DNA from: Cyanophora paradoxa CCMP329
Taxonomy: Eukaryota > Plantae > Glaucophyta
Assembly (NCBI GenBank): GCA_004431415.1
Contig: QPMI01000521.1
Location: 1-64,000 of the forward strand
Direction of reading: 5' to 3'
Length of the DNA stretch: 64,000 nucleotides
How positions within the stretch are numbered: the first letter of the stretch is position 1; each line of letters opens with the position of its first letter. A program made the position numbers and the translations under genes. A model generated the notes under the pieces. That model was not told the DNA's origin. It did not search any database and saw only the letters and a list, made by a program, of their open reading frames with translations. Below, piece by piece: positions 2,426 to 62,183 of the stretch.

Positions 2426-2479
2426 AATCAAGGATCATTGGTGAATTTTTTATGTTGCAGTATAATAAAAGAGATAATC

Positions 2480-26622: not shown

Positions 26623-26719
26623 AACACATATTGAAAAACGAATTTAAATCCAGAGTGAATCGAGATCGCGAAGCGATCGAGATGAACGAGGGATTTAAAT
26701 TCGTTTTTCAATATGTGTT
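26623..26719 (+). other. Terminal 97-nt hairpin with GCGAAGC loop and tandem G.A mismatches
   Basis: Perfect 29-bp arms 26623-26651/26691-26719, centred on 26671, at the AT/GC junction. Confidence 0.85.
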
Positions 26720-36300: not shown

Positions 36301-37691
36301 GCGAATATTAATCCGAAAACCAAAGCCTACGCGAAATATTTCACGAATTAGAGCATGCGCACCTTCTCGAATTTCTTCGAGGAGGCGATCGGGCCCGATG
36401 CGGGCCTGCTCGAGGACCGCGTCCAGGAGCCCCGACGAGAAGAGGCGCTCGGAGAAGGCGAGCGACGTGCGCCGCAGGAGGACGATGGCCAAGTGGATCG
36501 CTTCGGAGCGGAGCTGCGGGAACGTGGCCGTGGGGGGGTAGAGCGGGGTGCGGCGTGAGTCGCGACTGGCATGCGAGCGCGCAAATGCAGGCCATATCAT
36601 GACATAAATAGATGAAGGAAATTAAATAAAAATAACATCGCCAAGTGCCAATTAGTATGATAAGATATCGATGCAGATATTGCGCGCGCGCGCGAGCCTT
36701 CGTCACTCCTTGCTTCATCGTGCGGGCCAGGCTCTCCACGATGTCCGTGTTCTCATGAATCTTGCAATTAGCGCGCGTTCATGATCAAAAGCATGAAATC
36801 GAATGTTTTTAATCGAAGTATACGTATACGTAGCTATATCAATAAATACTATGATACATGCGCATGCCATGATGCAAATCGAAATCGAAACCAAATTAAA
36901 GCGCACGGAATCCAGTTCGTCGCGAATGGGGTCATAAACATGCTCGTGATCACGAATGTAGGAGTGGAGGAACTCGCACGCCGCGGCGGCGACCACTGGC
37001 CTCTCGTACGCGCCGACGAGCTGGCGCGCGTCTGTGTAGGCACGCGCGAACGCACACGCGCGACGAACGCACCTCGGCAAGCAATGAAAGGGCCGCCTTG
37101 AAATCGTGCACATGCTCGGGCCGCCCGGGCCGCTGACGGCGCCGGCCGTCTATTTTGAAATCTTCGACGATTGCACGCGCCCATTTCTGATCATAAACGC
37201 GAAGGTCAATATAAATCATAATTATACCGAATTGAACGTGCATGCGCATGCACATAGTGCACGTGCTCAATCGAAGGCGCCGCTCTCGCGAGGTCTAGAG
37301 CTAACTGTAGAGCTAAATTAAATATTAATCTATACCGTCGGATAAATATTAATCTATACCGTCGGACATATTTCATCGCGGGCGCGCGGGTCGCGATCGG
37401 CGCCCGCGCTCCGATCGATTTTCGCGCACCAGCTTTTCGCGCCCGCGAGCGCTCTGATCGATTTTCGCGCATGCGCACCAGCTTCGTGGCGAGGCCACAC
37501 GAGGGAAGCGTCATGAGCTTCTCAGATGCGATCCTCACCCGCTCCTTGGGCGCGCATTTGGCGAAGCAGCGCAGGCAGCTGCAGCCACGCGCACAGCGCG
37601 CCGCGGCCGGCCCCGTCTCGCATCCTTCCGACTCCCCTTCGCTGTCGGTGTCCCAGTTGAGCTTCGCGCGCTCGGAAGGAGCGAGCGGCAT
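33330..37691 (-). CDS. Host multi-exon helical-repeat protein with C-terminal TPRs, copy A (5' end uncertain)
   Basis: AENLK-NVGNKHF...Y...AAALGNRAEC...AERDAAAAL...KA TPR pattern. Inverted paralogue of 38060-41227. Confidence 0.6.
34430..35055 (-). mobile_element. Non-autonomous Helentron-like (HINE/DINE-1 architecture) insertion in an intron
   Basis: 13-bp subterminal IR TGCAAGGGGGGAA (34461/35040), internal IR forming hairpin 35013-35051, stem-loop 34435-34458, internal ~77-bp duplication. Absent from the paralogous intron. Confidence 0.5.
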
Positions 37692-38059
37692 GGTTTTGGG
37701 GCGCGATCGCCGGGTACAGCAATTGTCAAATTTGAAAGCGTACCCCGCGGCCGGTCCGGAATCCGGATCCCGGAGTCCCGGACGATTCCGCCGAGCTCGA
37801 GCGCGCGACACACTCGTCGAGGACGCCGCCCTCCGCAACGTTAACGTAAACACGACTTGCGAAGCGCCGGGTGCGCGCGGGCTGCCCGCAGTCATGGGGG
37901 CGCGTCGCAGTCATGTTGACTGCAGTCATGGGGGCGCGTGCGCGCTCAGAAACTCTTGGAATGCGCTTGCCCGCACTTCAGTCGCTCGCCGAGGTGATAT
38001 CAACAATGCGAGCTCGAGCCGCGGCCGGCGCCGCGGGGGCCGGGGTGGTGATATCGCGA

Positions 38060-41000
38060 TGCTTGACCATTCTTGCATGCGCAGCTTGCCGGCATGTACG
38101 AGCGGCCAGCAGTCGCTGCGAAGGCTTTGAAAACTCTGCAGGAGTACGTGCGCGATTTCGAATTGTACGAAGGCGAAGAAGGCGACGTCGACGGCTTTCC
38201 GAATGCCGTGCACCGCGGCGCCGCATATAATTACCCTGAACCGCATTGACCTCAAGCTTGCTTAGATCTACGAGAAAACGAAAATCCTGGAGAGCCTCGC
38301 TCGCGATCGCACGCTCAAGCACGGCGTGACGAAGGTTCGAATTCAATCCCCGCGCGCGCGCCTGCAGCGAATCGATATCGAAATTCGAATTCAAAGCTCC
38401 TTGTCGAATGATCGTCGCTGTGCTGCAGCTTCGCTTCGACGCGATTCACACCGCCGTCCCCCTTGTGCCGCGCACGTCGCTCGCGTTCTCCGAGCGCCTC
38501 TTCTCGTCGGGGCTCCTGGATGCTGTCCTCGAGCAGGCTCGCATCGGGCCCGATCGCCTCCTCGAAGAAATCAGAGAAGGTTCCTTGCATGTCAAAATCC
38601 TATCCGTGCCTTCAACAAGCGAGCGCACATTTCGATTTTTAAGTTCGGCCTCGCGCGCAGCGCCGGAGCAGTGCAGAATGTTTTCGAGCATCCCGCAGCG
38701 TGTGTCGGCGTACGCCCCACGGTGCTCGAGAATCAGTTTGGCCAGCCAGCCAGCTTAAACTTGAAATTAAAGTCCCGGCCGAGGCTTATTTTGCCCTCAC
38801 TCCCCCGCGCCGCAGCTGCGCCGCTATGATTCAAGTGTATCAATGCGACGTCCACTTTTGCAAAAAAAAAATGCGCCGCTATGATTCAAGAATCCGTTGG
38901 CCACTTCTTGACACACGTGCCTTCTGAATTTTCTCTGCTGAGCTCCTGCCCGCCCCTGACGCGGCCGCAGCTGTGCACGGTGGCGGCGCCGCACGGCGAG
39001 CTCCGCCTGCGGCTGGCCCGGCACCCCGGCCTCGTCCCCGCCCTCCTGCACCTCGCCTCGGCCACCCGCCCCGTGCCCCGCCTCTACCCCGAGGACAGTA
39101 CCCCCCTCTACGCCTCCGCCTGCCTCCGCCAGCTCCTCTTCGCCCCCGTCGTGATCGGCGACCCGGCCGCCGCCGCCCCCGAGGCTCCCGCCGCCCCTTG
39201 GCCTCCTGCGGCCGCGTCCCCGCGCGGGGGCCGGCTTCGGCTGGTGGCGGCGGGGCACGAGGGGCACGGGGCGGAGCTGGCGGCGGCGCGCGGGGCGCAG
39301 GCGGCGTTCCTCGCCGCCCCGGGCGAGCCCGTCGCCGTCCTCGCCGGCGCCCTCGAGTGGTGCGCGCGCGAGGGGCCCGAGTCCTTCGAATTCGATTTTC
39401 TGATCCGACGCGGGCCCCGCTCACGCTTCCGCCAGGATCATACTTGAGGAGGACTTGCACGAGCGCTCCGCCTGGTTCGGGGCCGCCTCCATGTGCGCGC
39501 TCGCGTGTGCCGGCGCCGCGTGTTTAATTTCGTATGCCATGCGTTCCGCCTGCACCTGGTCATGACCACGCCCATCGCCGGCGCTGCGGCAGGTGCTGCC
39601 TCCACAGTGCGGACGGGCCCGAACCCGGCTCGCTCGAGAACGCCGTGGAGGCCCGCGCAGAGGTGAACGCTCACCCTGGACGTCCCTTCCCTCCCGCCTC
39701 CCCCTCTCCCCCTCCCCCTCCCCTCGCCCGATCGCGACCTGCCGGCCCGCAGCAAACGCGCGAGCTCGCCGCGTGCCTGGCGGACCTCTGCGTCTTCGAG
39801 GAGCACGCGCGCGCCGTCCTGCCCCACGCCCCGCTCCTCCGGAGGGTGCGAAGCCCGCTTCCTGAATAATCGAACCCCAGGCTCAAGCTGTAGATTAAGA
39901 GAAGCGCCTCAGCTTTTCGCGGTCTGCGTGGGCGCGGATTCCGACCCGATCTTCGGGGGCTACGACGGCGAGTTCGACCCGGACTTCGGGGGCGTCCCCC
40001 ACTACAACTGGAAGGTGCCAGGCTGCGGTCGCTTGCACTTATATTTACAGGCGCCGATCACGCGAATTTTAATACATGCATGTGCTGAAGCCGCCCGCCC
40101 CCTACCCCGCCCCCCCCTCCCCCCCCCCCCTCTCCTCCTCCCCCCCCCTCTTCGCCTCGGGAGAGTCTGAGCTTCGGCCGGCAGCACGTCCGGGACGGCG
40201 CCGTCCCCCTCGTCTTCACGAACGCGCTCCTCCACTGTGCGCCCCGGTCCCTCTTTATCTGTCTGTGCCGAGGCGGCGCGGCCGATGGTGATCCTGGCGG
40301 CGGATCCGGCGCTGGCGGGCCGGGGCGCCCGGCCGCGCGCCTCTGGATCTAGATCTGCTGTGGGGCGGCGCCGCTGACCGCTGCGCGGGGGCCCCGCAGC
40401 GCTCTTCACGGCGCACGCGCGCCTGCGGGGGCACTTCCCCGCCGAATGCCCCCCGCTGGAGGCGGGGCTCGCCGCCCTCGCCGCCCGCCAGGCCGAGAAC
40501 CTCAAGGCAATTGCAAGCCCCGGCCTCTAGATCTGCTTCCAGATATCGATCTAACTATAATCTTTGAATTTCCCCGGGGGGCCCCTCTTCTTAATTAAAT
40601 CGTTTCCCCTTTCTTAATCAAATAGTTTCCGCTCTCTTTATTGATTCGTTTCTAGATCTAGATCTACTTCAAATTCCCCGGTTTTTATGGTTTATAATTA
40701 TTGAATCGTTTCTAAAGCGTTTCGCGCGCAGGGCATCGGCGACGAGCACTTCGCCGAGAAAGAATACGCGGTCCGCTCTAATTTGTCTTGCTCGCATCGC
40801 CCGGCCGGCAGGCCGGCAGTTCCGGCAGTTTGCCGCGTCCGGATCCGGATCCGGATCCTGATCCGAGGGGCGCCGGCCGGGCGGCAGTTGGCGGCCCTGG
40901 TCTACGGCGCGGTGCTCGGGTTCTGCCCCGCGGAGGCGCGCCTCACGCGCGCCGCGGCCCTCGGCAGCCGCGCCGAGTGCGCCCTCCTCCTCGGCGGTGC

Positions 41001-41227
41001 CCGCCCCGCCCCGCCCCGCCCCGCCCGGCCGGCCTCAGGCGGGCGGGGCAGGGCGGGCGCGGGCGGCGGACGCGGAACGGGACGCGGCGGCGGCGCTGCG
41101 CGAGCTCGAGCCCGGGGCGGGGGCGGCGGGGCCCGGGCCCCGGGGGGCCGCCCTCGCCGAGAAGGCCCGCGGCCGCCTCCGCCGCGCCCGGGCCCTCCTC
41201 GCCGCCCCCAGCGGCCCCGAGGACTGA
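38060..41227 (+). CDS. Host multi-exon TPR protein, copy B (5' end uncertain)
   Basis: Exons homologous to copy A, with blocks near-identical at DNA level. Confidence 0.62.
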
Positions 41228-41587
41228 TAGTGAGGCACGCTGTCTGCTCACTGCAAAGCTTGCAGCTTGTAAATATTTATAGATTGCATAGAACGACTTT
41301 GACTAATTGAATATATGAGTGCTGAGCTGAAGCTTGCAGTTGGGAGTTGAGGTGCCTGAAGCTTTAATTTCGCGTTTGGTCGCATGGTGCTTATATAATT
41401 GGCATCTGAGCCTGCTTGCCAGCTCGCTCCCCCGCCAAGACGCTGATCATGAGCACGATATAGATCGTGAAACGCTCTTCGAGAAGTTCTTCGCTTCGAA
41501 TCAAAACTAAGCTAATGGCGGATTCGAGAACAACTAGTACTAGTCCAGTTGGAGGCCTAGGGCCGTGCGAGGGGGGCCCGGGGTCGC

Positions 41588-46686: not shown

Positions 46687-46928
46687 TACTGTAAACGTAC
46701 GAATTTCCGCCAGCGTTTAATTTCGACTATATTCGCCAGACCCTCGCGCTGTCGAATATTTGACGCTGGCGAATTAAGCCTTTGTATGGAGAGAGGGGTA
46801 CCAGCGGCTGACCTCTCTATGGCGAAGTCGCAGGGTGTCGAAATCAAGACGCTGGCGGACTAATTTTCGACAGGATTTTCGGGTTTTGTCGAATTAAAGT
46901 GCTGGCGGATATTTGTACGTTTACAGTA
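46687..46928. mobile_element. MITE with TA target duplication (Tc1/mariner-pogo type)
   Basis: TA-CTGTAAACGTACGAATTTCCGCCAGC ... GCTGGCGGATATTTGTACGTTTACAG-TA. Confidence 0.82.
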
Positions 46929-47692
46929 GCCGAATGCTTTGTTCCGAAATTAAAGACTCGAAGTCAGCCTGAATGACCCGGAAAGCCCCTCAAGGCCATT
47001 AAGGCGATTCTGTCCCATTCAAACAGAAAAAAGAAAAAGTTGACAAAAATTGGCAAAAAACCACGCGTTGTTCACAACTTCACATCCATGTGTGAGCAGA
47101 AAGATTCTAACTGACGCGAAAGACTCACTTGAAGACAGGCATTGACATGTACAGACAGACTGATGTTCGCATCTTACGTATACGCGTATACGCGTAGGCG
47201 TTGTACATGTGTAAAAGTTGAGGCGTACCCAGACCGGAGCGCTTCTAACAGAAGCAAACAGAAGCGCTGCAGCTGGCGCTAGCTTTAATTTCTGGAGCCT
47301 TGCGCAAGCGCCGCCGGCTGCAGCTGCACTGCTTCTGCAGCCCGCCTCCCTGCAGCTGTTGAAGAGCAAGCAATTGTTCAATTGCAAGACGCATAGAGAT
47401 TCACCACTAGAGAGCGAGCGCGGGTCGCCGCGCCGGCCGTCGACGTCGCTGTCGGCGAGACAGAAAGCGCTGCAGCGACCGTCGGACATTCGGGGCGCCG
47501 AGCGCGGCCGCCTGTCTCGCCGCGCCTGCAAGCCAATGCGTGCGAGCAGCGCTAGCAGTCGACTCGCGGACGTCGGTCACCTCGCGCTTGTCCCAAGCTA
47601 AGGCGGGCCTTCAAAGGCTTCGTTTAGTTTGCTTCTGCAGACGGAGTCGTAACGGTGCGCGTGCCGGCGCCTGGTGTCGTCGCCTGTTGTAT

Positions 47693-47752
47693 ACGCATGG
47701 ACCTCACACCCGGGCAATTCCGCTTCGCTCCATTGCCCCCGATTCCATGCGT
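47693..47752 (-). other. Hairpin with GCGAAGC loop and GGA/GGA mismatch at the inferred left end of element 2
   Basis: - strand GGGCAAT-GGA-GC-GAA-GC-GGA-ATTGCCC (47712-47738) plus an outer 9-bp stem 47693-47701/47744-47752. Confidence 0.6.
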
Positions 47753-48135
47753 TTCCAGTGTATACCTCCAGCCCCTCTTCAGTTAATTCACCTTGTACGT
47801 CTACGAGACTCAAATTCCCAGGTCTACCAGACTCGGGTCGGAGTCTTAACAAAGAAATATCTAACGACTATTCAGGGCAGAGCTGACAACTAGAATAGAC
47901 GAAGAGGAGCGCTGCCCCCTTGAGCGCGGTCTGTAGAACAACGTGGCAGAATAGGCTAGGCGATATTAATGAGTACAGAGAAGCTAAACGAGGAAACGTG
48001 TTAAGCTCTAGCTAGATGTAATTGATGTGTACAGAGAAGCTAAACGAGGAAAAAGCGTTAAGCTATAGCCGCACGTAAGGACGGGCCCCCAGAGCGGTCT
48101 GGTGCGGCCTCTGGAGATGTGTCGATGACTTTACC

Positions 48136-48903
48136 TTTCTTTTGTTTTAATTGTTTTAATTGTTTTAATTCGGAGGGTCAAGTTCCTAAGAAAACTTTGC
48201 GGACGCCGTGACGTGACGCTGTGACGTGGCGAGAAAACGGCGAGATACGTGTCACACAAAAGATCACAAGTTTCAAGTTTAAACTTAACGCTGGCCGGTT
48301 GGACGGTTGACCGGTTGGATGCAGTCGCCTAGTCGGTTCGGAGCTAGAGCGCTCCGGCTAGGACCGCTAGACCCAGAGCTATGACTTTATCAGCCGAGTG
48401 AGCTCTGACTCTCTGAAAATTGATGAAAAGCACAATTAGTTGCGAAATTAACAGGACCGGGTTTGTGGACAAGCTCACGTCCAAACGATGCTTTCATCAC
48501 ATCGATGCGCCCTGCGCTTACGGACGGACCGGGAAAGCGATTCGTACATCATCAGCTAGCTATAACCGCTGCAAGCTAGCGAGGCTGCGCGGTGAGAGCC
48601 TGGAGGTGCACGACCGGGGTTGTGGACAAGCTTGAACTCTGAAAAAGCCTGCAATTGTTGAACTTTGGAAATAGAAAAGTCGCAAGCCCAATTTAATTAT
48701 TTTGCAAGCTCAGCGGTCAGTCGACGAAACAGGTACCGGTTAGATCCGTCAGACTGCAGGCTCAGAAGTTTCTGCCTTTGGAGCTTTTCTTTTGTTTTAA
48801 TTGTTTTAATTGTTTTAATTCGGAGGGTCAAGTTGGCGAGAAAACTTTGCGGACGCCGTGACGTGACGCTGTGACGTGGCGAGATACGTGACACACAAAA
48901 GAT
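48136..48903. repeat. ~120-bp subterminal direct repeat pair (48136-48264, 48786-48903)
   Basis: (TTGTTTTAA)3 followed by GTGACGTGACGCTGTGACGT in both copies. Confidence 0.88.
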
Positions 48904-48905
48904 TG

Positions 48906-48957
48906 GCGCTGATAGTGCGCTGATAGTGCGCTGATAGTGCGCTGATAGTGCGCTGAT
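48906..48957. repeat. 11-bp tandem repeat (GCGCTGATAGT)4+
   Basis: Read directly. Confidence 0.9.
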
Positions 48958-49092
48958 TGCTAGCCGGAGACAGGTCTTGCAGTAAGTTGTATGACTTAAA
49001 GGTTTCTCGCATACATACTAGCAATCAGAGATTGTCTGCGATTAAATCCCAAAAAGTTTTCGGCCATCCAATATTGTAGAGACCTATTCATA

Positions 49093-52000
49093 ATGGACAG
49101 GAACAATCTGAGAGCTGAAATTCGGAGTCTAGCGCAGGAGCTACACAATCTTAGGTACATTAACGGAACATATTTGAACACACTGATGCGACTAGCAGAC
49201 CCACAGAGGGGAACCCACACACAAAATCTTCGAGCTAATCTTTCAACATTGCTTAGACTTAGACAGACGAACCGGCCGCAGCGCCCTTTGTACCAGTCAT
49301 GGATAACAAGTCATTTTGAGAACGAACGCAATGCTCGAATTGAAGCCACGCGAGAGTTTGATGAAATTGTAGAGTATGGGATCTCGAATTTATTTCGCGA
49401 GACAGGTCGAGGTGATACCGTGTTAAATTATACTCACTATGCATATCCGGGGTTGTTATTTACCAAGGATATTTTGGATATTGATCCGACTCCAATACCT
49501 GAGCGGGTTAAAGAGATCACGATTGAGTTTCTGAGAGAGCTGCGAATTCCAGAGAAAATAGGATCAAGCGTCCTAATTCGGTTTCATTTCGATAACTTTC
49601 GCATGTATCGCACTCAACTAGCAACAATCGAAGAGGGCACAATGCAGTCGCTCTTGTCAAATCTGGCTGAAAAGATGGAACAATGGATGCTAGCGCAGCA
49701 GCCATATGAAGACAACGACCTTTGGCCAGTAGTGAAAATAGAGGTGCTCATTGCAGAGAACGCTGCAGGCGCACTTGGAAACGTACCGAAACTCCCATTC
49801 AATGGCAAAGCCCTGACCATGAATAAGATCTACTGTCCGATTTCACCAGAAGACAACTGTGTGCTTGAGTGTTTTGAATATGTGAAGCTAAACCCTGGAA
49901 GAATAAGCCTTGATCGAATTTACAAGCAACTTCAGAGACTGGACTACGGAGGGATTAGAACACAGCTAGGACTGCGGCGAGGAATGATATCAGTTGATGT
50001 GCCAACGATTAATAAGCTGAGCGCTTTTTACAGAATAGACACCAGCGTTTTTGAGTTTTCGCAAGGAAAGTTTAAGCTGCTTTTTGCGACCGATCTAGGA
50101 TTTGAAAAACGTGCTCACCTTTGTATAGTCGATGTGCACTGCTACCTGATTAAGGATAAAAGAACGACTGAGATGGAGAAGTGTAGTGCCTGCGGGAAAA
50201 TGCAGTTCGAACTGGAAAGACACAAGCTAACCTGTCAGTTTTGTGCTAGATGTCGTTGCGCCTACAATCCAATTGAAGATCACACAAACAAATGCGTTGC
50301 CGCCATCAGAAACAAAGGTGTTATTGGAAGAAAGATTACTCCTTGCGAAAAGGAGAGTGAATTTACAGCGATGGATAGCGTGATAGGGGCTGACTTTGAA
50401 ACATTTCCTTGTGATGGCAAGACCCACGTTCCTTATGCTGTTGACACAGACATAATATGCAAGGGCGAAATTGTAGGAACCAAGATGTTTTACGGTCCTG
50501 AAACATTAAATCAATTCATGCAATGGCTGGATGCTTGGGCAGAGAAGACCACAGTAGTATTTTACAACGGTGCTGGTTTTGATCTGATATTCATATACCG
50601 ATGGCTGATTGAGAATCGGCCAGAAAGCCAGGTGAACGTCATGCGCTCCTCGGGCAAGATTAAGAGTATGAAATGGAAGACGTCAGCAGGAGGAGAGTTG
50701 ACGAGTTTTGACCCGTGCCTACATATTCAAGGTTCACTAAAACAGGCTGGAAAGGACTACGGCTGCACGACAATCAAAGGAGACTTTGACCATCGCAAGA
50801 TCAAGACGTGGGCAGACGTTGAGACACACAAGGAGGAATGGGGAGAATATCTTAGAGCCGACGTGCGATCGATGACGGAGCTATACATGAAATATTCGAG
50901 TACGAGCTTTGATCTATTTGGAATAAATGTGAATTCCAAACAAACACTTACAGCTTCATCAATGGCTTTTCAGATTTACCGGCAGCTGTTGAAGACAGAG
51001 CTGCAACTTCCGAAGTATAGTGAAGATCAGGTGTTTCGCAGGGCGATTTACGGAGGTCGCTGTTTACCATTCAAACGCAAGTTTGTCTCGAAGGGTCCAG
51101 ATGATTACTTGGTAGATCTGGATGTGGTCTCTCTATATCCAACCGCTATGTACTTTAACCAGTTTCCTACAGGTAAATTTAAGCTAATCAATGAACCGGA
51201 GGCATTAGAACGTTTTAGAAAGTTCATGTTAAGTCGAAAAATGGAGCAACTGTTCATTGCGAGCATCAGTGCGAAAATTCCTCAGGACCTTGTGCTTTCT
51301 CCGCTACCTCGTCACGAGTCGAATTTGGGCTGGTCGAACCTGAAACCGATCGAGCGCGAGATGTATACATCGGTTGATATCTACAGGGCGATAGCGCTTG
51401 GGGTGGAAATAACAGAAGTTCACGAGGTGTATTTATTTGAAGGCAAGGAGAGAATGTTTAAAGATTACATCGAGAAGTTATACTGTATGAAAGCTCGTTC
51501 AAGGAAGGGCACAGCTCAGTACGCAACAGCAAAGATTCAATTAAATGGTCTTTACGGAAAATTTGCCCAGAGGCCTGTGATCGAAACAACAGAGCTAGTT
51601 TCTAATTACCGCCGATTTAAGGAGCTACAGCGGACGTCTACGATTACAGACATCGAAATTGAGAGTGAAACACGGATGTATGTGACATATGAAGTACCTG
51701 AGAGCAAACGTGATGCTTGTGTGTCGAAGCCCTGTTTTATTGGAGCATTTATTCTGTCCTACAGTCGCGAGATAATGGACAGGTTCCTAGTAAAGATGAA
51801 CTCTTATAAAGACATCGAAGCCATGCCGTTTTACACGGACACGGACTCTCTTGTTGTGCACAGGAAATTTGCAGAGCTGGTGACTGATTGCATGAAGCGG
51901 CCCTACTCTGTGGAGGGAATGGGCGAAGAGGAGGCGAACAGGGTGATCTGCGAGAGCGAACTTGGAAAACTAGATTACGATATCCAGGGACACATTGTGG

Positions 52001-52419
52001 AGGCGTATTTCGTTGGGCCCAAGGTGTACTGTTGTCGGTACGTGAAAGCGAACGGTGAATCGGACGTGCATGTGCGTGCCAAAGGAATACCAAAAAGCTG
52101 GATCGAAGAGAACTGGCTTTCGAATGATCCGGAGATGAGGAAGGGGCACCTCCATTCTCGGGTTGCTTTGGAAGCGTTCAAGCAGATGCTTGAGAGCCGG
52201 TATCAGCCGGAGTGCAAAATAGAGTCTAAACTATCTCGTGTCTTCAAACCGAATGGAAAGCAACGCGAGGAGGGGATAGGTTTTAGTTCAATCATTCAGA
52301 TTCCATTCAGCAGAGTATTAAATAAGACGGAATACACAAAGCGAAAGATAATTTCGGATGACTATTACAGCACAGTTCCTCATGAGTACATCAGCCAAAA
52401 TTCAGGAGGCATACTATGA
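49093..52419 (+). CDS. Protein-primed family B DNA polymerase, intact
   Basis: ExoI ADFET, ExoII YNGAGFD, ExoIII YLRAD; YGGR, LDVVSLYP, KIQLNGLYGKFAQ, YTDTDS, GPKVY, RAKG; N-terminal DNCV...VHC vOTU-like region. Confidence 0.95.
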   Translation: MDRNNLRAEIRSLAQELHNLRYINGTYLNTLMRLADPQRGTHTQNLRANLSTLLRLRQTNRPQRPLYQSWITSHFENERNARIEATREFDEIVEYGISNLFRETGRGDTVLNYTHYAYPGLLFTKDILDIDPTPIPERVKEITIEFLRELRIPEKIGSSVLIRFHFDNFRMYRTQLATIEEGTMQSLLSNLAEKMEQWMLAQQPYEDNDLWPVVKIEVLIAENAAGALGNVPKLPFNGKALTMNKIYCPISPEDNCVLECFEYVKLNPGRISLDRIYKQLQRLDYGGIRTQLGLRRGMISVDVPTINKLSAFYRIDTSVFEFSQGKFKLLFATDLGFEKRAHLCIVDVHCYLIKDKRTTEMEKCSACGKMQFELERHKLTCQFCARCRCAYNPIEDHTNKCVAAIRNKGVIGRKITPCEKESEFTAMDSVIGADFETFPCDGKTHVPYAVDTDIICKGEIVGTKMFYGPETLNQFMQWLDAWAEKTTVVFYNGAGFDLIFIYRWLIENRPESQVNVMRSSGKIKSMKWKTSAGGELTSFDPCLHIQGSLKQAGKDYGCTTIKGDFDHRKIKTWADVETHKEEWGEYLRADVRSMTELYMKYSSTSFDLFGINVNSKQTLTASSMAFQIYRQLLKTELQLPKYSEDQVFRRAIYGGRCLPFKRKFVSKGPDDYLVDLDVVSLYPTAMYFNQFPTGKFKLINEPEALERFRKFMLSRKMEQLFIASISAKIPQDLVLSPLPRHESNLGWSNLKPIEREMYTSVDIYRAIALGVEITEVHEVYLFEGKERMFKDYIEKLYCMKARSRKGTAQYATAKIQLNGLYGKFAQRPVIETTELVSNYRRFKELQRTSTITDIEIESETRMYVTYEVPESKRDACVSKPCFIGAFILSYSREIMDRFLVKMNSYKDIEAMPFYTDTDSLVVHRKFAELVTDCMKRPYSVEGMGEEEANRVICESELGKLDYDIQGHIVEAYFVGPKVYCCRYVKANGESDVHVRAKGIPKSWIEENWLSNDPEMRKGHLHSRVALEAFKQMLESRYQPECKIESKLSRVFKPNGKQREEGIGFSSIIQIPFSRVLNKTEYTKRKIISDDYYSTVPHEYISQNSGGIL

Positions 52420-53518
52420 TCCAGAAATAGGGCTTCAGTCTGCCACACGTATTGCCAAGAAGTTGAAAATACCAGTTTCCAGGGTTAGAGAAGTGCTGGA
52501 GAAATTATCGACAGCGCAAAGATTTGCGAGGCCGCAAAAAGAGAAACCATTCACAAGTATAACATACGACAAAGCAGAGAAATACTACGAGGTGGACCTA
52601 ATCGACGTGACTCCGTACGCTAGAACAAACCGCGGTATTCACTTTATAATGAACGCAGTGGACGTAGTGACTCGGAAAGCCTACAGCATTCCAATGAAGA
52701 ACAAGAGCGAAAGTACACTCCTTTCAACACTACGGAAACTCATAGATAGTTTTCCAGCCAAGCCGGATATTATTCAGACAGATCAGGAGTTTAAAGCTTC
52801 AGCTGGTAGTTTGTTAGAAGCTGAGGGAATTAAGCACAATGCTGTGGAAGCGCATCGACCACAAGCAAACGGCAAAATAGAAAGATTTAATGGAACTTTG
52901 AAGCGAGTTATTGCACGGTATATGGAGGCATATGACACGGATAGGTACATCGACAAGCTGCCCGCTTTCTTGCGCAATTATAATTCGTCAGAGCATAGGT
53001 CGATTGGTACATCGCCAAACGCTGCAGCAGAGAATCCGAAGGAGACAATCGCGCGCAACGATTATCAGCGAGAGATCTACGAGCAGCAACACTACCTGAA
53101 GGAGGTCGAATTTAAAGTAGGAGACCTAGTTCGAGTTAAGCTAACCAGGAGAACCTTCGATAAATCGACAAAGCCAACCTTCTCGAAAGAAGTATTTCGA
53201 ATTGAGTCGATTGGGGGTTTTGGACCCCTTCTAAGATTTAAACTCGCTGGATCGGATACACCAGTGACCTACCAGCAACTTTTAAAGGTCCCAGTAGATT
53301 CAGAGGAACGTCGTGCGGGAAATGCAGCACAGCGGTCACAGCAGCGCAGAAAGAAGGAGCTAAATCTGATGCGAGAGAATTTAGATCGAGTGGACATAGA
53401 AAAAAATAAGAAGCTGCTTCGCCTTCAAAAGCAACTTGCGACAGCTGGAACTGTCAAGTTAAACCCTGGTGGAATATTAGAGAGAACAAAGACCAGAAGG
53501 CTAGTCAAAGAGCTATAA
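52382..53518 (+). CDS. Retroviral-like (rve) DDE integrase, intact
   Basis: YEVDL, IQTDQE, KIERFNGTLK, YNSSEHRSIG, FKVGDLVRV. Confidence 0.93.
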   Translation: MSTSAKIQEAYYDPEIGLQSATRIAKKLKIPVSRVREVLEKLSTAQRFARPQKEKPFTSITYDKAEKYYEVDLIDVTPYARTNRGIHFIMNAVDVVTRKAYSIPMKNKSESTLLSTLRKLIDSFPAKPDIIQTDQEFKASAGSLLEAEGIKHNAVEAHRPQANGKIERFNGTLKRVIARYMEAYDTDRYIDKLPAFLRNYNSSEHRSIGTSPNAAAENPKETIARNDYQREIYEQQHYLKEVEFKVGDLVRVKLTRRTFDKSTKPTFSKEVFRIESIGGFGPLLRFKLAGSDTPVTYQQLLKVPVDSEERRAGNAAQRSQQRRKKELNLMRENLDRVDIEKNKKLLRLQKQLATAGTVKLNPGGILERTKTRRLVKEL

Positions 53519-53780
53519 CAACACATTGTTGGAGGGACTCTAGCAGTGCTAACTTTTCGTAGATTCGATTGCGATAGCGGCGATTGGCCTCTAAATGATT
53601 CTCGCTGTTGTTCTGCTGGTATCTTGAGCTGGCTTCTATGTGTCGTCGGCGAAATTCCGGATCTTCATTGTAACGACGGCGATGGCTCTCTGCACGCTTT
53701 GCCTTTCGTGCAGCAGCGATTTCAGGGGTAACAACAATTGGTTTGCGACCACGCTGTTTAGTTGATGATTCAACATCCAT
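53505..53780 (-). CDS. Small basic putative DNA-binding protein
   Basis: RGRKP...RRRYNEDPEFRRRH. Related to 5916-6143. Confidence 0.6.
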   Translation of the reverse strand: MDVESSTKQRGRKPIVVTPEIAAARKAKRAESHRRRYNEDPEFRRRHIEASSRYQQNNSENHLEANRRYRNRIYEKLALLESLQQCVVIAL

Positions 53781-53889
53781 TTCTTTGGTTTTCTCGTCAC
53801 AAACAATGTGCGAAATCTTTTTATGGCATAAATCGCAGGTTTGTGTTGCGTTAAATTCCGAACATAAAATCCGAGATATAATTCAAAGA

Positions 53890-54174
53890 ATGGAAGCAGA
53901 CAAGCAGCGTTGCTGCGCCGCAGGAACAATTCGATTTGGGAAGTACCGCGGTGAAACTCATCTTAAAGTAGTGTTTAGCGACCCAAAATATGCGGAATGG
54001 TTGTTATCTTGGCCGCATCTTCGTGAGTACGACAAACGTGAATTGCAGCGTGCTTTTGAAATTTGTCAATCAAATGATCTGGCAACAGTAAACGGTATGC
54101 TTGACTTTGCAGAGCGAGAGAGGAAACCAACTGTAGAGGATCTTCCGGATTTGCCCGATTTTGATTTGCCTTAA
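53890..54174 (+). CDS. Small protein with DUF3820/ExoX-C-terminal-like FGKYRG motif
   Basis: IRFGKYRG...DPKYAEWL. Confidence 0.55.
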   Translation: MEADKQRCCAAGTIRFGKYRGETHLKVVFSDPKYAEWLLSWPHLREYDKRELQRAFEICQSNDLATVNGMLDFAERERKPTVEDLPDLPDFDLP

Positions 54175-54203
54175 AGAGATCTCAATCTCAGATTGTAAAG
54201 AAG

Positions 54204-54779
54204 ATGGAGGTCACAATTCCAGAGGTTCCTGAAGATGTGGCTTTGATACCAATTACTGGACGTAGGAATGGCAGAAACGGAATTGTTGTCGCTTATGCAC
54301 TAGTTAGTCAGGATGATGCTCAACGTGTTCTTGGATTCCGCTGGAGTTTACATAATTCTGGATATGCTCGAACCATTATCAATCATAAGTGTGTGTTCTT
54401 GCATAACTTCATCAGCGGTGAGTTAGAGAACGGATTGACTGTCGATCATATAAATCTGAACAAGCTTGATAACCGCCGCGAGAATCTGCGTTTAGCAACA
54501 CAGCGGCAGCAGAATTTGAATCGTGGCCAGCAGCGCAATAACACATCAGGATTCATAGGTGTTACTTTCCATCAGCGAGATGGTAAATGGCAGGCGGAAT
54601 ATCGGATAAATGGTCGCAAAAAGCACATCGGATACTTTTCCACTGCTGAAGCTGCAGCAAGAGCCCGTGATGCTTACGTTCTAGAACATACTTCAGATGC
54701 AGATAAGCCGTTCTTGCGTCTGAATTTCACAGACGAATCCTTCTCCCACCCATCGCATTCTTCATCTGTGAGCTCGTAG
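54204..54779 (+). CDS. HNH-AP2 homing endonuclease
   Basis: VDHINLNKLDNRRENLR plus SGFIGV...KWQA...HIGYFSTAEAAARARD. Confidence 0.92.
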   Translation: MEVTIPEVPEDVALIPITGRRNGRNGIVVAYALVSQDDAQRVLGFRWSLHNSGYARTIINHKCVFLHNFISGELENGLTVDHINLNKLDNRRENLRLATQRQQNLNRGQQRNNTSGFIGVTFHQRDGKWQAEYRINGRKKHIGYFSTAEAAARARDAYVLEHTSDADKPFLRLNFTDESFSHPSHSSSVSS

Positions 54780-55364
54780 AATTTGGCTCTGAGACGTAAG
54801 GAGATGCAGTTTTAACCTCGGCAGAGTCAAGCGATTGCTCGGCTTTAGCTTTTTCGTTTTTCAGATAGCGTAAATCTGGTACATCCATAGGTCTGTGCTT
54901 AAACATTTCGCTTCGCAACATCTCGCGGATCTTAGCTCTTTCTTGCTTGTCTTTTACATACGATTCGATATTAGCCGACCTCGCTTCTAAATCTCGCAAT
55001 TTAGCCGCTAACTCGTCAAATTGTGACTTTGACACCGTTGCTGTCTTGATTTTAGGCCCTGAATACCGCGCTTCAGACGCCATCGCTTGTAAAATTCTAG
55101 CAGCATCATCATCGATATCAGACTGCATTTCGTTTACAATTTTGACCTGGCTCTGTCGGTCGTCAATCGCACTGGCATTAGCAGCAGCAGAGGCGATCGT
55201 TTTAGCAACGGGTGCATTAAGGCGGGGTCACTAGCTAATTCACCGCTAGGTTCAGCAACAGCTGCGCCCTCAGTTGAGCCGCTTTCAATCAGTGGAGTGT
55301 TCGGCTCAGATATATTAACCTTGCGACGTTCCCGATAGCCCTTCTTAGGAATCCCGCGACTCAT
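54727..55364 (-). pseudogene. Core-like coiled-coil protein (one frameshift ~55220)
   Basis: Two ORF fragments homologous to 4720-5454. Confidence 0.62.
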
Positions 55365-55373
55365 CTTATTTTC

Positions 55374-56114
55374 TTAAGATAAGATTTTAAAACGCCTCTT
55401 TTTAGAAACAACAGGCGATTCTTTCTTAGGCTCTTCTTCATTCTTAAGCCATTTTGTAAAACGAAAACTCTTATCTTCAACAGCTTTATCAACGTACCAG
55501 GCCGTATCGTACTTGGTCCCATCAAGGACTAGGCACTGATAATCGTGCGCCCAGGTTTCAAATAAAGCTATAAATTCTTCTTTTGGGAGATGGCTAAATT
55601 CTCTATAAATGGCCTCCAGCTCCGTGTGATTAGAGTAACTGAAGAAAAAACAATAGTCGGAGTTCGATCTTATAGATTGACTCAAAGCTGTTAGTTTTTG
55701 CGTCATTAGAATTGTACTTATATTAAAATGGCGACCCTGCGTAAAAAGTCGATTAACGGTCTTGCTATTTCGCAGATCAACAGTTTCAGAGGCAGCAACG
55801 AGATCATCCAATACAAGCAATATCTGCGGCGCTTTCTTTTTGTTTTCAATCAAATTTCGCTGTGAATCAATGATTTCTGCAACGATAGATGGCTGAAAAT
55901 CGTCATAAAGCTCATTCGGTATTGCAGAATACTCGCCGTTGAATTTGGTGGCGGTAAACACAACGACTCGGTTGATCTTTGGATACAGCAGTCGAAGCAG
56001 ATGCTTTGTGCAATAGAAGGATTTGCCGCTATTAGACTTTGAAATAAACAGGGCTTTGAATGGGACCCTCATATCGCTAGGCTGGAACTTTGCGAGCTCT
56101 TGAGACTCATCCAT
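55374..56114 (-). CDS. A32-like packaging ATPase
   Basis: SKSNSGKS, LVLDD, QGRH, MTQ...IRSNSDY. Confidence 0.92.
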   Translation of the reverse strand: MDESQELAKFQPSDMRVPFKALFISKSNSGKSFYCTKHLLRLLYPKINRVVVFTATKFNGEYSAIPNELYDDFQPSIVAEIIDSQRNLIENKKKAPQILLVLDDLVAASETVDLRNSKTVNRLFTQGRHFNISTILMTQKLTALSQSIRSNSDYCFFFSYSNHTELEAIYREFSHLPKEEFIALFETWAHDYQCLVLDGTKYDTAWYVDKAVEDKSFRFTKWLKNEEEPKKESPVVSKKRRFKILS

Positions 56115-56192
56115 CAAAAAATTAACTATTGATATTCGCAGGCAAACACAACCGCGACCGCAGGCGAGTCAGCTTGTCTGGCGACACTGTGA

Positions 56193-57580
56193 CTAGAGAT
56201 TAACTTTCCGCAGTCCCGCAGCATCAACAATTAGGACAGTGTGAAGGAGAGCGCGAATTTGGACGTAAATCTTGTTGTTAGCATCATACGCAGCAGGGTT
56301 CATGATATTCAGGAAGCAGCTGCTGGAGTTCGTCAGATCTACGAAACCAGTTTGAGCAGCATTTCGAATCGATTTATCCCCACTAATGCAAAATGGCAAT
56401 CCAGTCAGAACATACCGATTAAGGGGTGCGTCGAGATTGGAGCACTTGAAGACATCAGCGATGAGTTCAGCACCTTGCAATAGAGGAACAGGCTCATTTG
56501 AATAAAGCCGCTGTCCATTCAATTCGCAGGAAATAGTAATATCGCGAGCATTAGCCTCGGTTTTGAGGACACTGTGTTTTCCATCAGTTTGGTTCATGTT
56601 TGGCTGCTTGCGAATGCTAACGAATAGGCCGTAACAAAGTCCACTGATTTGAGACAGATTAATTCGGGTGGGCGCACCAGCACCAGCATAAGTAATTGAA
56701 TCAGCATCAACCCAGCCGACATCGGTAGCGGGAATTGCGATTCCAGACGTTTTGACTTTCTCAATCACCTGGGCAAAAGTGGCCTCATCAACGTTGATGC
56801 AATGAGCAATAATCTTTGGATTCGAAAGCTCCGGATTGGCAGGGGTGACACTGAGAACATTGGGAGTTATATTCTGGCCGATGTTTGCAGGGGATGCAGC
56901 AGCAGCTCCCACGCTCCCAAGTCCATCTTCTTTAGAAGCATCACCGCCTATGGCATATTCTGTTACAAACCTACCACCATAGCTGGTTTCGACGAAGCCC
57001 TGGGCACGATCACGGAACCAAACCTCGACGGAAACCTCGCCAGATAGAGCACCAATCGGAAGCACAGAACCCTCCCAGGGACAGGGGATTTTTACACTGA
57101 AAATACCTCCAGTGCGATTGCTCCCCTGAGGTGGTGTTCCATGGAGCCAGCCACCGGATCGGTACTTCTTTTTAAGCTGAGCATCATCATTGTAAATCAG
57201 TGCGCTGTGAACAAGCCAGTCCTCGGGACAATGTAGCTGTAGGAAGCATATTTGATTTCGATTCGCTTTACGAGAGCACCAACCGATCGCAAATAACCAG
57301 TGCGAACCAGGTCAGTGTCACCAGTAAATGCTGTCAGCTCGGGAAGGGTAAACTGGAGTTCGAGTCCCTGAAGGAAATTGTATCGGGGCAGGAAATAAGT
57401 AACCCTCTTTCCGAAGCAGTCTCCATAGTCATTGCTTGGGTTGACAACAACACGAACAGGCTTGGTTTGGCTCGTTAGACCTAACATAAGCTCGTTGTTC
57501 ATGAAGAAGTCCTTCGCTTCCTGAGGTGTGGTGAGGAGCTCTTTGAGGCCGAGCCGCTGCAAATTCTGAGTAACATCCAT
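56193..57580 (-). CDS. Major capsid protein (single frameshift at ~57197)
   Basis: Joining TAH/LIYNDD... gives one ~460-aa protein collinear with the element 1 MCP. Confidence 0.8.
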
Positions 57581-57631
57581 CGAAGTATATAATTGCAGTG
57601 AAAGAAAATAATTCTGCCGCTTCACCAAGAC

Positions 57632-58588
57632 TCAGTTTGACGAATTGATCCAAGGATATGTCTTTGACCTTTTCTGGAGCTGAAGTTTTGCAAGTTCGTA
57701 GACAACATCACCATTGGGTTCGTCAGGACCATAACGAATTTCGAGAATAAATGACACAGGAGCTCCATTTAAATCAGCGATTCGCTGCATAAAATCGTAT
57801 ATCTCAATAGTCACAGAGTAGAGGTCCAGCTTTGAATAAACATACTTATACAAAGGAGTTGCTTCAGTTGAATCGTAGTAGGCTGTCTCACCAGGACGGA
57901 GGGCGCTTGGAATGCTGAGCTTTGAGAAGAAGCCAGGAATTGAAGTATTTGGCATACTGACAAGGTCACCAATTTCAGGAATGCGAAGTAGCACATGATC
58001 ATCGGGAGTGACATCGGGTTCATAAGCGCCCTCTATATATTGAATATCGACAGTTAAATCCTTAGACCGAATCGGTAGAATTGATCGCAAGCCTAGCAGC
58101 TTTGCAGTTCGCTGAGCCCTTGCAACGGCCTGGTAGTTTCTGACTTCCCGCCCACCCTGGTTCGTTGGCAACATCAGAGCAATAAAGAACTCGAAGTTAG
58201 CTGTGAACCCTATTAATTTAACCGCTGAATTATACGTGCACGTGAGACCAGTCCCCGTCAACCTTTGGTTTATATTTGTCACAAGCGAGGTGACGTCGTA
58301 ATTTCCAGGTGGAATTGCAATGTTATTCCACGCTCCAAAACCTGGCTGAGGTGGGTCGGGTCCCTCATTTGCAGGATCATATTTGCACCAATATATATAG
58401 GTGTCAAACACTAAATCCTCTGCTGGATCGAGTGCATCAACTGTGCTCATTGTGTTGGGGATCTCAGCAGATACCAGGCGCACGGCTTTTACATCCTGAT
58501 AAACTTTAGGCAGTCTTACTTTAAATTTTGAGGTGGATGTCAGCTCATCCGCTTGGTGGCTTGCAATGCAGACGTAGTCCGTCGGCAT
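57632..58588 (-). CDS. Minor capsid protein/penton A
   Basis: FKVRLP...VKAVRLVSAEIPN...VTIEIYD...DLNGAPVSFILEI penton pattern. Confidence 0.8.
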   Translation of the reverse strand: MPTDYVCIASHQADELTSTSKFKVRLPKVYQDVKAVRLVSAEIPNTMSTVDALDPAEDLVFDTYIYWCKYDPANEGPDPPQPGFGAWNNIAIPPGNYDVTSLVTNINQRLTGTGLTCTYNSAVKLIGFTANFEFFIALMLPTNQGGREVRNYQAVARAQRTAKLLGLRSILPIRSKDLTVDIQYIEGAYEPDVTPDDHVLLRIPEIGDLVSMPNTSIPGFFSKLSIPSALRPGETAYYDSTEATPLYKYVYSKLDLYSVTIEIYDFMQRIADLNGAPVSFILEIRYGPDEPNGDVVYELAKLQLQKRSKTYPWINSSN

Positions 58589-58615
58589 CTTTTTTATATC
58601 AGTTAGAGAATAAAA

Positions 58616-59571
58616 ATGGTCGAAGACAAGCATCGACGCTGCGCCAGGCTCAGCTTTGACAGTAGAGACAGAAGGCCAATCGATTCAGAGGCAAACTTTG
58701 TGCTAGAAATAAATGAACCTATAATCAATCCAGTTGCTGTTCGACTTACCCAGTGTGAGTTCGCAAATAGCCTTTACACGAGCATTAAAGATGAGTATCT
58801 TTCGATCACCTTCCCAACATTTGGACGGAAAATCTGGCAGTTTTTGAGCCTGGTATAATTACTACTGCAAATATGGGCGAAACAGATCTTTACAACTTTG
58901 GCCTATCGTTTAAGTTTGAACTGGGGGGAATCGTAATAGCATATTTCAAATTGTTTCGGGACCCAGAGACACTGAAGATGTCTGCCTATTGCAACCGTTC
59001 CTGCACAGTGACCTGCCAGTTCAAAGCTCTATCGAATCTGCTAGGGCTGAACCGAAATGAGCCCCTCCAGCTGTCTCCTATCGTGATTGAAGGAGGGCAA
59101 AGATCAGTAACTGCAGCTGAGCGATATCTCGAGGTTGCTGGCATTCCAGTAACACCTTCACACCCTGAATATGGCGTGGATTTCACCGAAAGAATGCGGA
59201 GTGAGCCACTTGGTTATGCTGTCGAATTTCCAAAGATAATTGACATGAACAGCGACCAGTATCTCTTCCTAGTCTGTGAAGAGCTTCGACCATTTGCTTC
59301 AAAGCTTCGCCGTGGGGCCAAAACAATGTGCAACTACGGGCTTGCTCGAATTCAAATGAGTCAGGACGTTGGCAAATTCGTTTATATAAATCAGGATCAT
59401 CAAGGCGAATGGATCCCCATCGAAGAGCGTCTTGTGCTGACTTCCTTGCGACTGCGCATTGTAGACAGAGATGGTGATGATGTATTACTGAATGGATTGC
59501 CATGGTCTGGTGAACTGCAGTTCATTACTAGGGAAAGCCGAAGGCAAGAAGCCACTTGTGCTTCGCACTGA
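58616..59571 (+). CDS. Minor capsid protein/penton B (one frameshift ~58850)
   Basis: FDSRDR...VRLTQCEFAN...LRLRIVDRDG...LNGLPWSGELQF. Confidence 0.78.
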
Positions 59572-59631
59572 TTTGAAAAGTTGCAGACAAGCCTTCATCC
59601 CGTTTTATTTCTTGGCACAATATATAAAAAA

Positions 59632-59964
59632 ATGTCGCAGTTGATGCCTTTAGCTCAGATTGAAAAGTACTTGCCGTTGATGCGGGACAAAAAAGTATCA
59701 CTTGTTGCGATTGGAGATAAGCCAAGCACACAAACAAACCTAGGTTTTCTGCAAGCTTACCGCCGATTCGGTCCTGACGGAATCAAAAAGGAGCTCGCAA
59801 CCAAAAACACAACTTGGTATCAGCGAAGAGAGAATTACATAAAGAGGCGACTGGGAGGGCGTAATGGAGCACCATTTTGGGAGAAAGATAAATCTGGCAG
59901 AACTATTCCAACACGTCTTGGACTCTCTCTGATTTCCTGGGCATTCATGCCGCCGCCTAATTAA
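59632..59964 (+). CDS. Conserved hypothetical viral protein
   Basis: VSxVA...GFLQAY...W..RR..YIKR...LSLISWAF pattern recalled from large DNA virus/PLV hypotheticals. Confidence 0.5.
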   Translation: MSQLMPLAQIEKYLPLMRDKKVSLVAIGDKPSTQTNLGFLQAYRRFGPDGIKKELATKNTTWYQRRENYIKRRLGGRNGAPFWEKDKSGRTIPTRLGLSLISWAFMPPPN

Positions 59965-61441: not shown

Positions 61442-61556
61442 TTTTAAAAGGGGGCTTATATAAAAATGTCCTATATCTTGAAGAAGCCAGTGCCACTTCG
61501 TAAAGCTCCAGATCTCGTGGATGATCGACATATAAATATCCGTGTATTCGGGAGTA

Positions 61557-62075
61557 CTACTGCTGGAAATTCAGCTGCAGGAATTGCTTATCAGCCTCTA
61601 AAGTGTGCACAATAGCAAATGCATCACGAGCACGAGCAGCAGCCTCGGCTGTGTGGAAATAACCTATGTGCTTCTTTTTACCATCTACATTAAAATAAGC
61701 TCGCCATTTACTACTTGATCTATCAAAGTTGACTCCAATAAATCCTGATGAATTGTTAGATTGGCGGTATCGATTCAAAATTTGCTGGCGCCTAGATGCA
61801 ACTCGCAAATTTTCACGTCGATTGTCGAGGGGATTATGGTTGATGTGATCGACAGATAGGCCTTCTTCGATATTTGGAAAGAGAAACACTTGAAGTTTAA
61901 TTGTTGTATACTTCCCGTTTACTTTTATGTTAGCCTGAGCATAGCCATTATTATCCAAGTGCCATTTCTTCTGAAGAACTCGTTCGGTATCTTCGTGAGA
62001 CACAAGGGTATATGCACGAATGTTTCCTCGACGATCACGGAGTGGAACCGCCATTGCACCAACAGGAATGTCCAT
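61557..62075 (-). CDS. HNH-AP2 homing endonuclease (paralogue of 54204-54779)
   Basis: VDHINHNPLDNRRENLR plus AP2 domain. Confidence 0.92.
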   Translation of the reverse strand: MDIPVGAMAVPLRDRRGNIRAYTLVSHEDTERVLQKKWHLDNNGYAQANIKVNGKYTTIKLQVFLFPNIEEGLSVDHINHNPLDNRRENLRVASRRQQILNRYRQSNNSSGFIGVNFDRSSSKWRAYFNVDGKKKHIGYFHTAEAAARARDAFAIVHTLEADKQFLQLNFQQ

Positions 62076-62183
62076 TTCGATTCCAGCTTACTTAAGCTTG
62101 GCTTCTTTACAGTTAGAACCCGACATCTCTTTATAGCATATCAAAGTCTTGATCTGCATTCTTTTATCGAACCATCTACTATC

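Follow-up and report, generated by a model that had tools for sequence, protein, structure and literature searches.

Two integrated elements and their genes

The window, i.e. the whole stretch of 64,000 nucleotides of DNA that was analysed, contains two blocks of low GC content, at positions 1 to ~26720 (element 1) and ~47700 to 64000 (element 2), while the host DNA has 55-78% GC. The features at the left end of element 2, with its main genes and the corresponding hairpin of element 1, are collected in Table 1. Element 2 encodes an intact protein-primed family-B polymerase (pPolB), an rve integrase and an A32/FtsK packaging ATPase, the genes expected of a Polinton or Polinton-like virus (PLV), and as judged from these predicted proteins it is an integrated PLV. 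Polinton/Maverick elements are likewise bounded by terminal inverted repeats (TIRs) and carry pPolB, integrase and ATPase genes (PMC8097293). The Pfam scan covered 18 proteins, ORF 59957-61531 of element 2 being left out; the capsid candidates at 56193-57580 gave no Pfam match, and their probable identity is deduced from their position beside the ATPase gene.

Table 1. Coordinates of the features discussed in the text (positions are those of the window).
Feature	Position	Strand	Description
Single-copy host flank	46929-47680		One contig, 46884/46906-47710, depth 88/23/29/110
Probable left end of element 2	47681-47685		From contig stop and bin depth
Probable left TIR of element 2	47685-~48250		~2x depth; inner edge 48085 to ~48250
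Outer 9-bp stem	47693-47701 with 47744-47752	-	Separated from the inner hairpin by an asymmetric purine-rich internal loop
Inner hairpin	47712-47738	-	7-bp stem, GGA/GGA motif, 2-bp stem, GAA loop
Core	47719-47731	-	GGA / GCGAAGC mini-hairpin (47722-47728) / GGA
Direct repeat	48136-48264 and 48786-48903	+	96% identity in stretches of 99 nt and 26 nt
Protein-primed PolB	49093-52419	+	1108 aa; PF03175, E 7e-59
rve integrase	52358-53518	+	PF13683, E 3e-8; PF00665, E 4e-7
A32-type packaging ATPase	55374-56114	-	PF04665, E 4e-10; 37% identical to that of element 1
Probable major capsid protein (split ORFs)	56193-57580	-	60% identity of the C-terminal piece to 3016-3846 of element 1
Putative right-terminal hairpin of element 1	26623-26719	+	47-nt arms, GCGAAGC loop, 7/7 mismatches G·A

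The first 370 residues of the pPolB were modelled with a mean pLDDT of 62. The model shows an alpha/beta domain (residues 141-223), with Tyr205 in the loop before its last strand, followed by an OTU-like fold; an OTU fold ranked first in the PDB (E 0.015), the best BFVD matches were the PolBs of Polintons, adintoviruses and mavirus, and C256 and H349 are invariant in 22 sequences. The enzyme is thus predicted to have a terminal-protein (TP), vOTU and polymerase layout, the TP domain being judged by its topology and by Tyr205; a TP-vOTU layout of such polymerases has been described (10.1101/2024.03.18.585575, section 6).

Some further features of the window may be mentioned here. Two HNH-AP2 endonuclease genes are present in element 2 (54204-54779 and 61557-62075), and several viral genes, i.e. 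the capsid candidates and the PolB of element 1, are split into consecutive ORFs (2284-3846, 9301-12581 and 56193-57580), either by decay or by assembly indels. The ORFs 15521-17061 (element 1) and 59957-61531 (element 2) presumably encode patatin-like lipases, from their glycine-rich and GTSTG motifs. In element 1, an S-adenosylmethionine decarboxylase-like gene (PF02675, 25059-25460) runs at its end into the TIR (from 25365), and the gene-free gap after the integrase holds arrays of 11-mer and 9-12-mer repeats (14558-15036). A GTGTGACAC-type motif, possibly a regulatory site common to both elements, forms palindromic arrays in the TIR of element 1 (25519-25951), occurs there once internally (8789-8910) and is also found in the terminal region of element 2 (48245-48257 and 48878-48903). 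The host DNA at 33307-41250 contains nested long inverted repeats (arms of 112-439 nt, 85-99% complementary), resembling a foldback-like duplication.

The hairpin near the left end of element 2

On the minus strand, positions 47712-47738 read GGGCAAT-GGA-GC-GAA-GC-GGA-ATTGCCC, so that both this sequence and the outer 9-bp stem reported by a previous sequence-only reading were confirmed from the letters. The heptamer GCGNAGC is present here as GCGAAGC. This heptamer is known to melt at 76.5 C and to be nuclease-resistant (PMC13037366), and a guanine zipper is formed where GGA faces GGA (PMC11014236); by analogy, the core is predicted to contain sheared G·A pairs and a guanine zipper. Both motifs are matched closely, with the exact GCGAAGC and with GGA/GGA set between Watson-Crick pairs, but they have been described separately, the mini-hairpin at origins or promoters of phages and plasmids and the zipper in human satellite III (PMC13037366, PMC11014236), and their combination at the end of a PLV was not found in the literature available to us.

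The core GGA-GCGAAGC-GGA has no other match in the window with up to one mismatch (0.06 expected). In terms of folding energy the hairpin of element 2 is modest overall (z -1.6 to -3.0): with standard DNA parameters, in which sheared G·A pairs do not count, 81 nt gave a z-score of -2.6 (2 of 200 shuffles equally stable) and the 41-nt core one of -1.6 (14 of 200). Counting both strands, GCGAAGC occurs at 18 sites in the window, only two of which, 26671 (+) and 47725 (-), have 9/12 flanking Watson-Crick pairs, and the caution in the sequence-only reading that GCTTCGC alone also arises by chance in the host was well placed. When any GNA loop with 9/12 pairs and purine-only mismatches is considered, the same two sites are again the only ones in the window (0.39 in regional shuffles). 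In 20,000 dinucleotide shuffles of the first 540 nt of element 2, there were 141 cases of GCGAAGC on the same strand and no more than 100 nt from the end, none of them with 9/12 pairs, and 36 cases of any GNA loop with 9/12 pairs in this position; the thresholds of this test are post hoc, having been chosen once the hairpin was known.

The complement of the hairpin strand has a TTC loop and pyrimidine mismatches, so that only the hairpin strand is expected to fold this stably. The first 110 nt of element 2 contain one interrupted hairpin, and in the predicted folds of this end the last 4-12 nt at the 3' end are unpaired. An Rfam scan of the window gave no match at the gathering score.

Position of the element boundary

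The stretch is contained in 20 public runs of one organism, and assembled contigs of 4 of the 22 listed runs were compared. The single-copy contig of the host flank terminates at 47710 in all four runs; because neighbouring contigs overlap by 30 nt, the repeated sequence starts at ~47681, or it may start a few bases to the right if the flanks of other insertion sites happen to have bases in common with this one. In the bin 47573-47693 the extra depth corresponds to 10-15 bases if it is overlap-doubled, and otherwise to 19-31, and the first base of element 2 is probably within 47681-47685. A start at 47685 would give a 5'-TG end; TGTTG seems to be at or close to the start of element 2, and resembles the TG ends of Gypsy/Ginger integrase substrates (PMC2836005). 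The motifs found, together with target site duplications (TSDs) of 6 bp, at the ends of vertebrate Mavericks (PMC8097293), namely (AGT)2, (AG)3 or (AC)3A, are absent from 47681-47692.

The summed contig depth, a rough proxy and not a copy number, was at 47734 22-37 times that of the single-copy flank contig. The depth of the contigs at 47878-48085 exceeded that of the identical pPolB contig by a factor of 2.05-2.54 (three runs with such a contig listed), and 48222-48716 had 0.66-0.93 times the depth of the pPolB contig (four runs). Element 2 has therefore a probable left TIR of ~500 bp, present in two subfamilies, and the right part of the element lies beyond the window. In addition, the direct repeat at 48136-48903 ties the terminal region to sequence upstream of pPolB.

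Because the repeat starts at ~47681-47685, to the left of the hairpin, the hairpin is element DNA, and because the boundary was set by the contig stop and the depth jump, it was fixed independently of the hairpin. The outer stem begins 8-12 nt, and the loop lies ~40 nt, inside this end, and we consider it very likely that the hairpin is inside the terminal repeat of element 2. The end had previously been placed at ~47690, where a shift in composition from host to element had been noticed. The hairpin does belong to the element and lies near its end, but the end itself is at ~47681-47685, 5-9 nt away; a repeat starting only beyond 47900, which would have left the hairpin in host DNA, is at variance with the contig data. 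As to composition, the change-point (47742) is indeed near the hairpin, but its interval (47685-47786) alone does not fix the boundary, and the GC change-point was discarded as a boundary marker, being too loose and range-dependent.

The host flank holds two MITE-like, high-copy small repeats, one at 46164-~46460, where 13-16 contigs per run depart from the window sequence at 46164, and one at 46687-46928, with 41-nt inverted ends bounded by TA. Considering that both are at most 1.6 kb away, and that the depth at 47734 reaches up to 2.75 times that of pPolB, one could regard 47685-48220 as a separate small MITE- or Helitron-like transposon beside element 2, with the hairpin as its terminal signal. 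This appears extremely unlikely, because none of the joints listed skips the stretch, its subfamily ratios match those at pPolB, and part of it is repeated upstream of pPolB. A Helitron 3' end is made of a hairpin followed by CTRR within ~25 nt; no CTRR is present within 25 nt after the hairpin on either strand, and a Helitron 3' end was therefore rejected.

Two subfamilies of element 2

A second subfamily of element 2 carries a T>A change at 47734, which breaks the pair with 47716. The variant makes up 22-39% of the depth at this position in the four runs (630/2912, 194/843, 337/855 and 785/2434). The ratio of variant to major form, 0.67 and 0.65 at the hairpin in two runs, is similar to the 0.55-0.73 obtained at pPolB, so the same two subfamilies are present at both places. 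In run X17 the major contig begins at 47704; this implies that the subfamilies agree over 47704-47733, and therefore 47716 is unchanged and the stem pair is broken without compensation. From this branch point of the contigs, the loop and the GGA/GGA motif appear to be retained in both subfamilies. The uncompensated variant counts against a tight constraint on the stem.

Comparison with element 1

The TIR of element 1 begins at 25365 and pairs with positions 3-193 of the window. Its hairpin (fold z -12) appears to be terminal, with the loop ~48 nt inside an end placed by composition only. In both elements the GCGAAGC loop is on the 3'-terminal strand, as the sequence-only reading had anticipated in describing the left end of element 2 as a mirror of the right end of element 1, and it is ~40 nt (element 2) and ~48 nt (element 1) from the end. 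All ten inner-stem mismatches, seven in element 1 and three in element 2, are purine-purine. The two ends share no significant sequence (blastn, best E 0.9), in agreement with the earlier remark that the stems are unrelated to 26623-26719.

The probable capsid C-termini of the two elements are 60% identical, the ATPases 37%, the integrases 28% and the polymerases 22%. Element 1 encodes a D5-type helicase, and its PolB belongs to a family that includes the polymerases of animal Mavericks and adintoviruses; the N-terminal part of this PolB aligns weakly (probability 53%) to the vOTU Cys/His region of element 2. On the strength of these comparisons, elements 1 and 2 are best described as related PLVs with different replication modules.

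The claim that structure, and not sequence, is conserved at the ends is borne out by the unrelated stems, the common loop and the purine-only mismatches of the two elements, but not by the stem variant at 47734; as a general rule it does not extend to distant relatives, where GNA loops are a minority and the mismatches are not biased (see below). Similarly, the two hairpins do support each other, but less independently than had been implied, because the capsid lineage is common to both elements.

It is improbable to a considerable degree, in our opinion, that the hairpin is neutral, i.e. a decayed or chance palindrome whose loop is a coincidence or a functionless relic. The weak folding z-scores, the uncompensated variant and the criteria set after the fact would all fit such an origin, and strand annealing can yield palindromic ends (10.64898/2026.07.28.741278), but the absence of a match in 20,000 shuffles and the ten purine-purine mismatches out of ten, with strand and distance matching across both hairpins, argue against it.

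A structure kept where capsid, ATPase and integrase are homologous, and the polymerases barely alignable, might instead be an end signal recognised in integration/excision or packaging, by the rve integrase, the A32 ATPase or a capsid-associated protein, and not by the polymerase. A preprint on Halocafeteria links terminal palindromes to particular rve integrases (10.64898/2026.07.28.741278), and the title of a cited work ties mismatched poxvirus hairpin ends to virion maturation. However, the vOTU Cys/His region is retained in the two polymerases, so that protein priming may apply to both, and an integrase match was found in only 2 of the 9 relatives with terminal hairpins that were checked. 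Moreover, retroviral-type integrases act upon duplex ends, while the strand asymmetry of the hairpins points to a single-stranded state. This interpretation is considered rather unlikely.

Terminal hairpins in distant relatives

The exact 27-nt hairpin had no match in metagenome contigs, a search of viral contigs with the integrase alone gave no relatives, and the search with the element 1 ATPase found one homologue; for these reasons, no close relative is available for comparison. The distant pPolB relatives are 23-33% identical. Of 144 contig ends of these relatives, 11 have a long hairpin no more than 25 nt away (1.2 expected), and GNA-loop hairpins with at least 10/12 pairs are present within 150 nt of 3 of the 144 ends on the 3'-terminal strand and of none on the other (0.16 expected), an asymmetry that is not significant alone. 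The three loops are 37, 41 and 81 nt from the contig end. It should be considered that contig ends are not proven genome ends, and that assemblers break at palindromes. Seven near-duplicate loci of L001-L086, L238 (the same contig end as L223) and L248-L260 (matches of E 8e-10 or worse) were left out of the end counts.

A GAA loop was seen in only 2-3 of the 11 terminal hairpins, and a general G·A bias in the relatives was rejected, their mismatches being 21 R·R vs 25 Y·Y. Among relatives of the element 1 PolB or of the integrase, GNA hairpins were present at 0 of 56 ends, so that the enrichment was not replicated; one long hairpin was found at the same ends. Terminal palindromes thus appear common in pPolB elements, with the GNA/G·A type as a subset. 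Imperfect palindromes of 45-90 nt were also observed within 20 nt of the ends of pPolB contigs L002, L008, L011, L013, L046, L053, L059 and L081.

The core motif in other viral contigs

In IMG/VR, at least 121 loci match the 15-nt core exactly. A first analysis covered 80 of these loci, and the later count all 121 (97 non-redundant). Among the non-redundant matches listed, the flanks pair at 7/10 positions or more in 13 of 97, vs 1.8 in same-locus controls; in the held-out part (41 loci), 4 of 29 were paired vs 0.58 expected, again among the matches listed. Most of these stems resemble neither one another nor the window, and because the same core carries unrelated pairing stems above controls, it is a recurrent folded motif. 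The view of GGA/GGA with GCGAAGC as a folded unit gains support from this count, which is silent on its role here.

In three related loci (L145:255-352, L195:255-351 and L200:255-367) the motif is 44-60 nt from the contig end on the 3'-terminal strand, and the outer stems covary, staying complementary; the record of L145 is classed as a provirus. Rfam gave no family in 17 motif loci, with sub-threshold miRNA-like matches in 2 of the 17; no known RNA family fits, as there is no match above threshold, and the core is possibly an uncatalogued class of single-stranded DNA structure.

The stem-bearing core also occurs in phage-type contigs (L096, L098, L099, L100, L120, L122, L154, L169, L177, L202 and others of L087-L207), and mini-hairpins are known at the G4 origin, ssiA and N4 early promoters (PMC13037366). 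Both facts would suit a hairpin that, as in G4, ssiA or N4, serves as an initiation signal on single-stranded DNA or as a promoter, to which a primase or an RNA polymerase is recruited. A pPolB (PF03175) match was present in 0 of 5 motif-bearing viral records, which would suit this too, but the control was silent as well, so that this count is uninformative on absence. However, the part of element 2 in the window encodes neither a primase nor an RNA polymerase among the proteins scanned with Pfam, and the first ORF starts 1.4 kb from the hairpin; such a role is therefore very unlikely.

Comparison with known terminal structures

Palindromes inside TIRs adjoining TSDs have been described in endogenous virophages of Halocafeteria seosinensis and in one PLV subtype, mostly with non-pPolB genes (10.64898/2026.07.28.741278). 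The hairpin of element 2 appears to be similarly placed, inside a probable TIR beside the insertion site of an rve-integrase element in a eukaryotic genome. The preferential link to non-pPolB genes does not hold here, since element 2 has a pPolB; its palindrome is heavily interrupted and leaves an unpaired 3' tail, whereas self-priming was proposed for the Halocafeteria elements. The text of that preprint gives no loop sequence or G·A pairing, although its figures or supplements may show loops.

Fold-back self-priming in the manner of parvoviruses or poxviruses, with the 3' end annealing to itself, was proposed for PLV terminal palindromes in section 7 of the same preprint, and it would suit element 1, whose 47-nt arms reach the presumed end and which encodes a D5-type helicase. 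For element 2 it is improbable: the predicted folds leave 4-12 nt at the very 3' end without a partner, a state that disfavours self-priming and suits a template for a protein primer. Furthermore, the polymerase has a predicted terminal-protein domain, and the preprint itself ties palindromes mainly to non-pPolB elements.

A closer parallel in structure is offered by Streptomyces telomeres, where GNA loops closed by sheared G·A are present on the 3' overhang; Tap binds these hairpins and primes on the terminal protein, and they are thought to resist single-strand nucleases (PMC4513846, PMC5449611, PMC7205883). As in element 2, the GNA loop is on the 3'-terminal strand near the end, and unrelated telomere sequences keep the loop type. 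In contrast, Streptomyces telomeres have several packed palindromes, with a 13-nt palindrome I, and element 2 one interrupted hairpin; the former belong to bacteria with an internal bidirectional origin and a Tap primase, the latter is an integrating eukaryotic virus with a family-B polymerase. The Pfam matches of the 18 proteins name no Tap or Tpg, and the likeness is to be read as an analogy, not as homology.

With regard to novelty, the terminal palindromes of PLVs are already known from the 2026 preprint. The word 'hairpin' is absent from the available text of PMC8097293, PMC12721341 and the Krupovic preprint, and that of PMC11296320 uses it for poxvirus telomeres only. Our literature searches turned up no description of GNA or sheared-G·A hairpins at the ends of Polintons or PLVs, although preprint figures may show loops, and the GNA/sheared-G·A architecture is, as far as we found, unreported.

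A possible function of the hairpin

Protein priming with strand displacement is established for the pPolB class of enzymes. Considering the predicted TP-vOTU-pPolB polymerase, the free genome of element 2 would be a linear molecule replicated from both ends by strand displacement, and each displaced strand would end 3' in the hairpin sequence, in its GAA/G·A version. We tentatively propose, with somewhat more doubt than confidence, that the 3'-terminal strand may be capped by the hairpin, folded as a single strand, so that the end is protected and marked for synthesis primed by the terminal protein. The GAA loop would be closed by a sheared G·A pair, GGA/GGA would form a guanine zipper, and the resulting fold would resist nucleases. 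The unpaired 3' tail of 4-12 nt could serve as the priming template, as do the GNA-loop hairpins at Streptomyces telomeres, and the imperfect stem may limit the extrusion of a cruciform from the integrated duplex. The cap is supported by the distribution of stems: of the 18 GCGAAGC sites just two have one, and both of these are at element ends on the 3'-terminal strand. On the other hand, to our knowledge, adenovirus- and phi29-type origins need no hairpin.

A broader and decidedly doubtful extension of the cap hypothesis is that the PLV lineage keeps a strand-specific GNA/sheared-G·A 3' hairpin, similar to that of Streptomyces telomeres, while swapping repeats and polymerases; the structure of the end would then be the origin that permits module exchange, and the GGA-GCGAAGC-GGA fold a widespread, uncatalogued single-stranded DNA signal. 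The function given here is a proposal, and its generality seems limited.

In the literature available to us, no experimental account was found of how Polinton or PLV replication starts and how these elements leave the chromosome. Their replication modules are swapped often, and a substrate of less than 100 nt for priming, integrase and packaging assays is provided by this strand-specific structure, which is present at the ends of two related elements whose polymerases differ. The hairpin of element 2 extends terminal palindromes to pPolB-bearing elements, suggests a convergence with Streptomyces telomeres, and is a practical marker to locate the ends of such elements.
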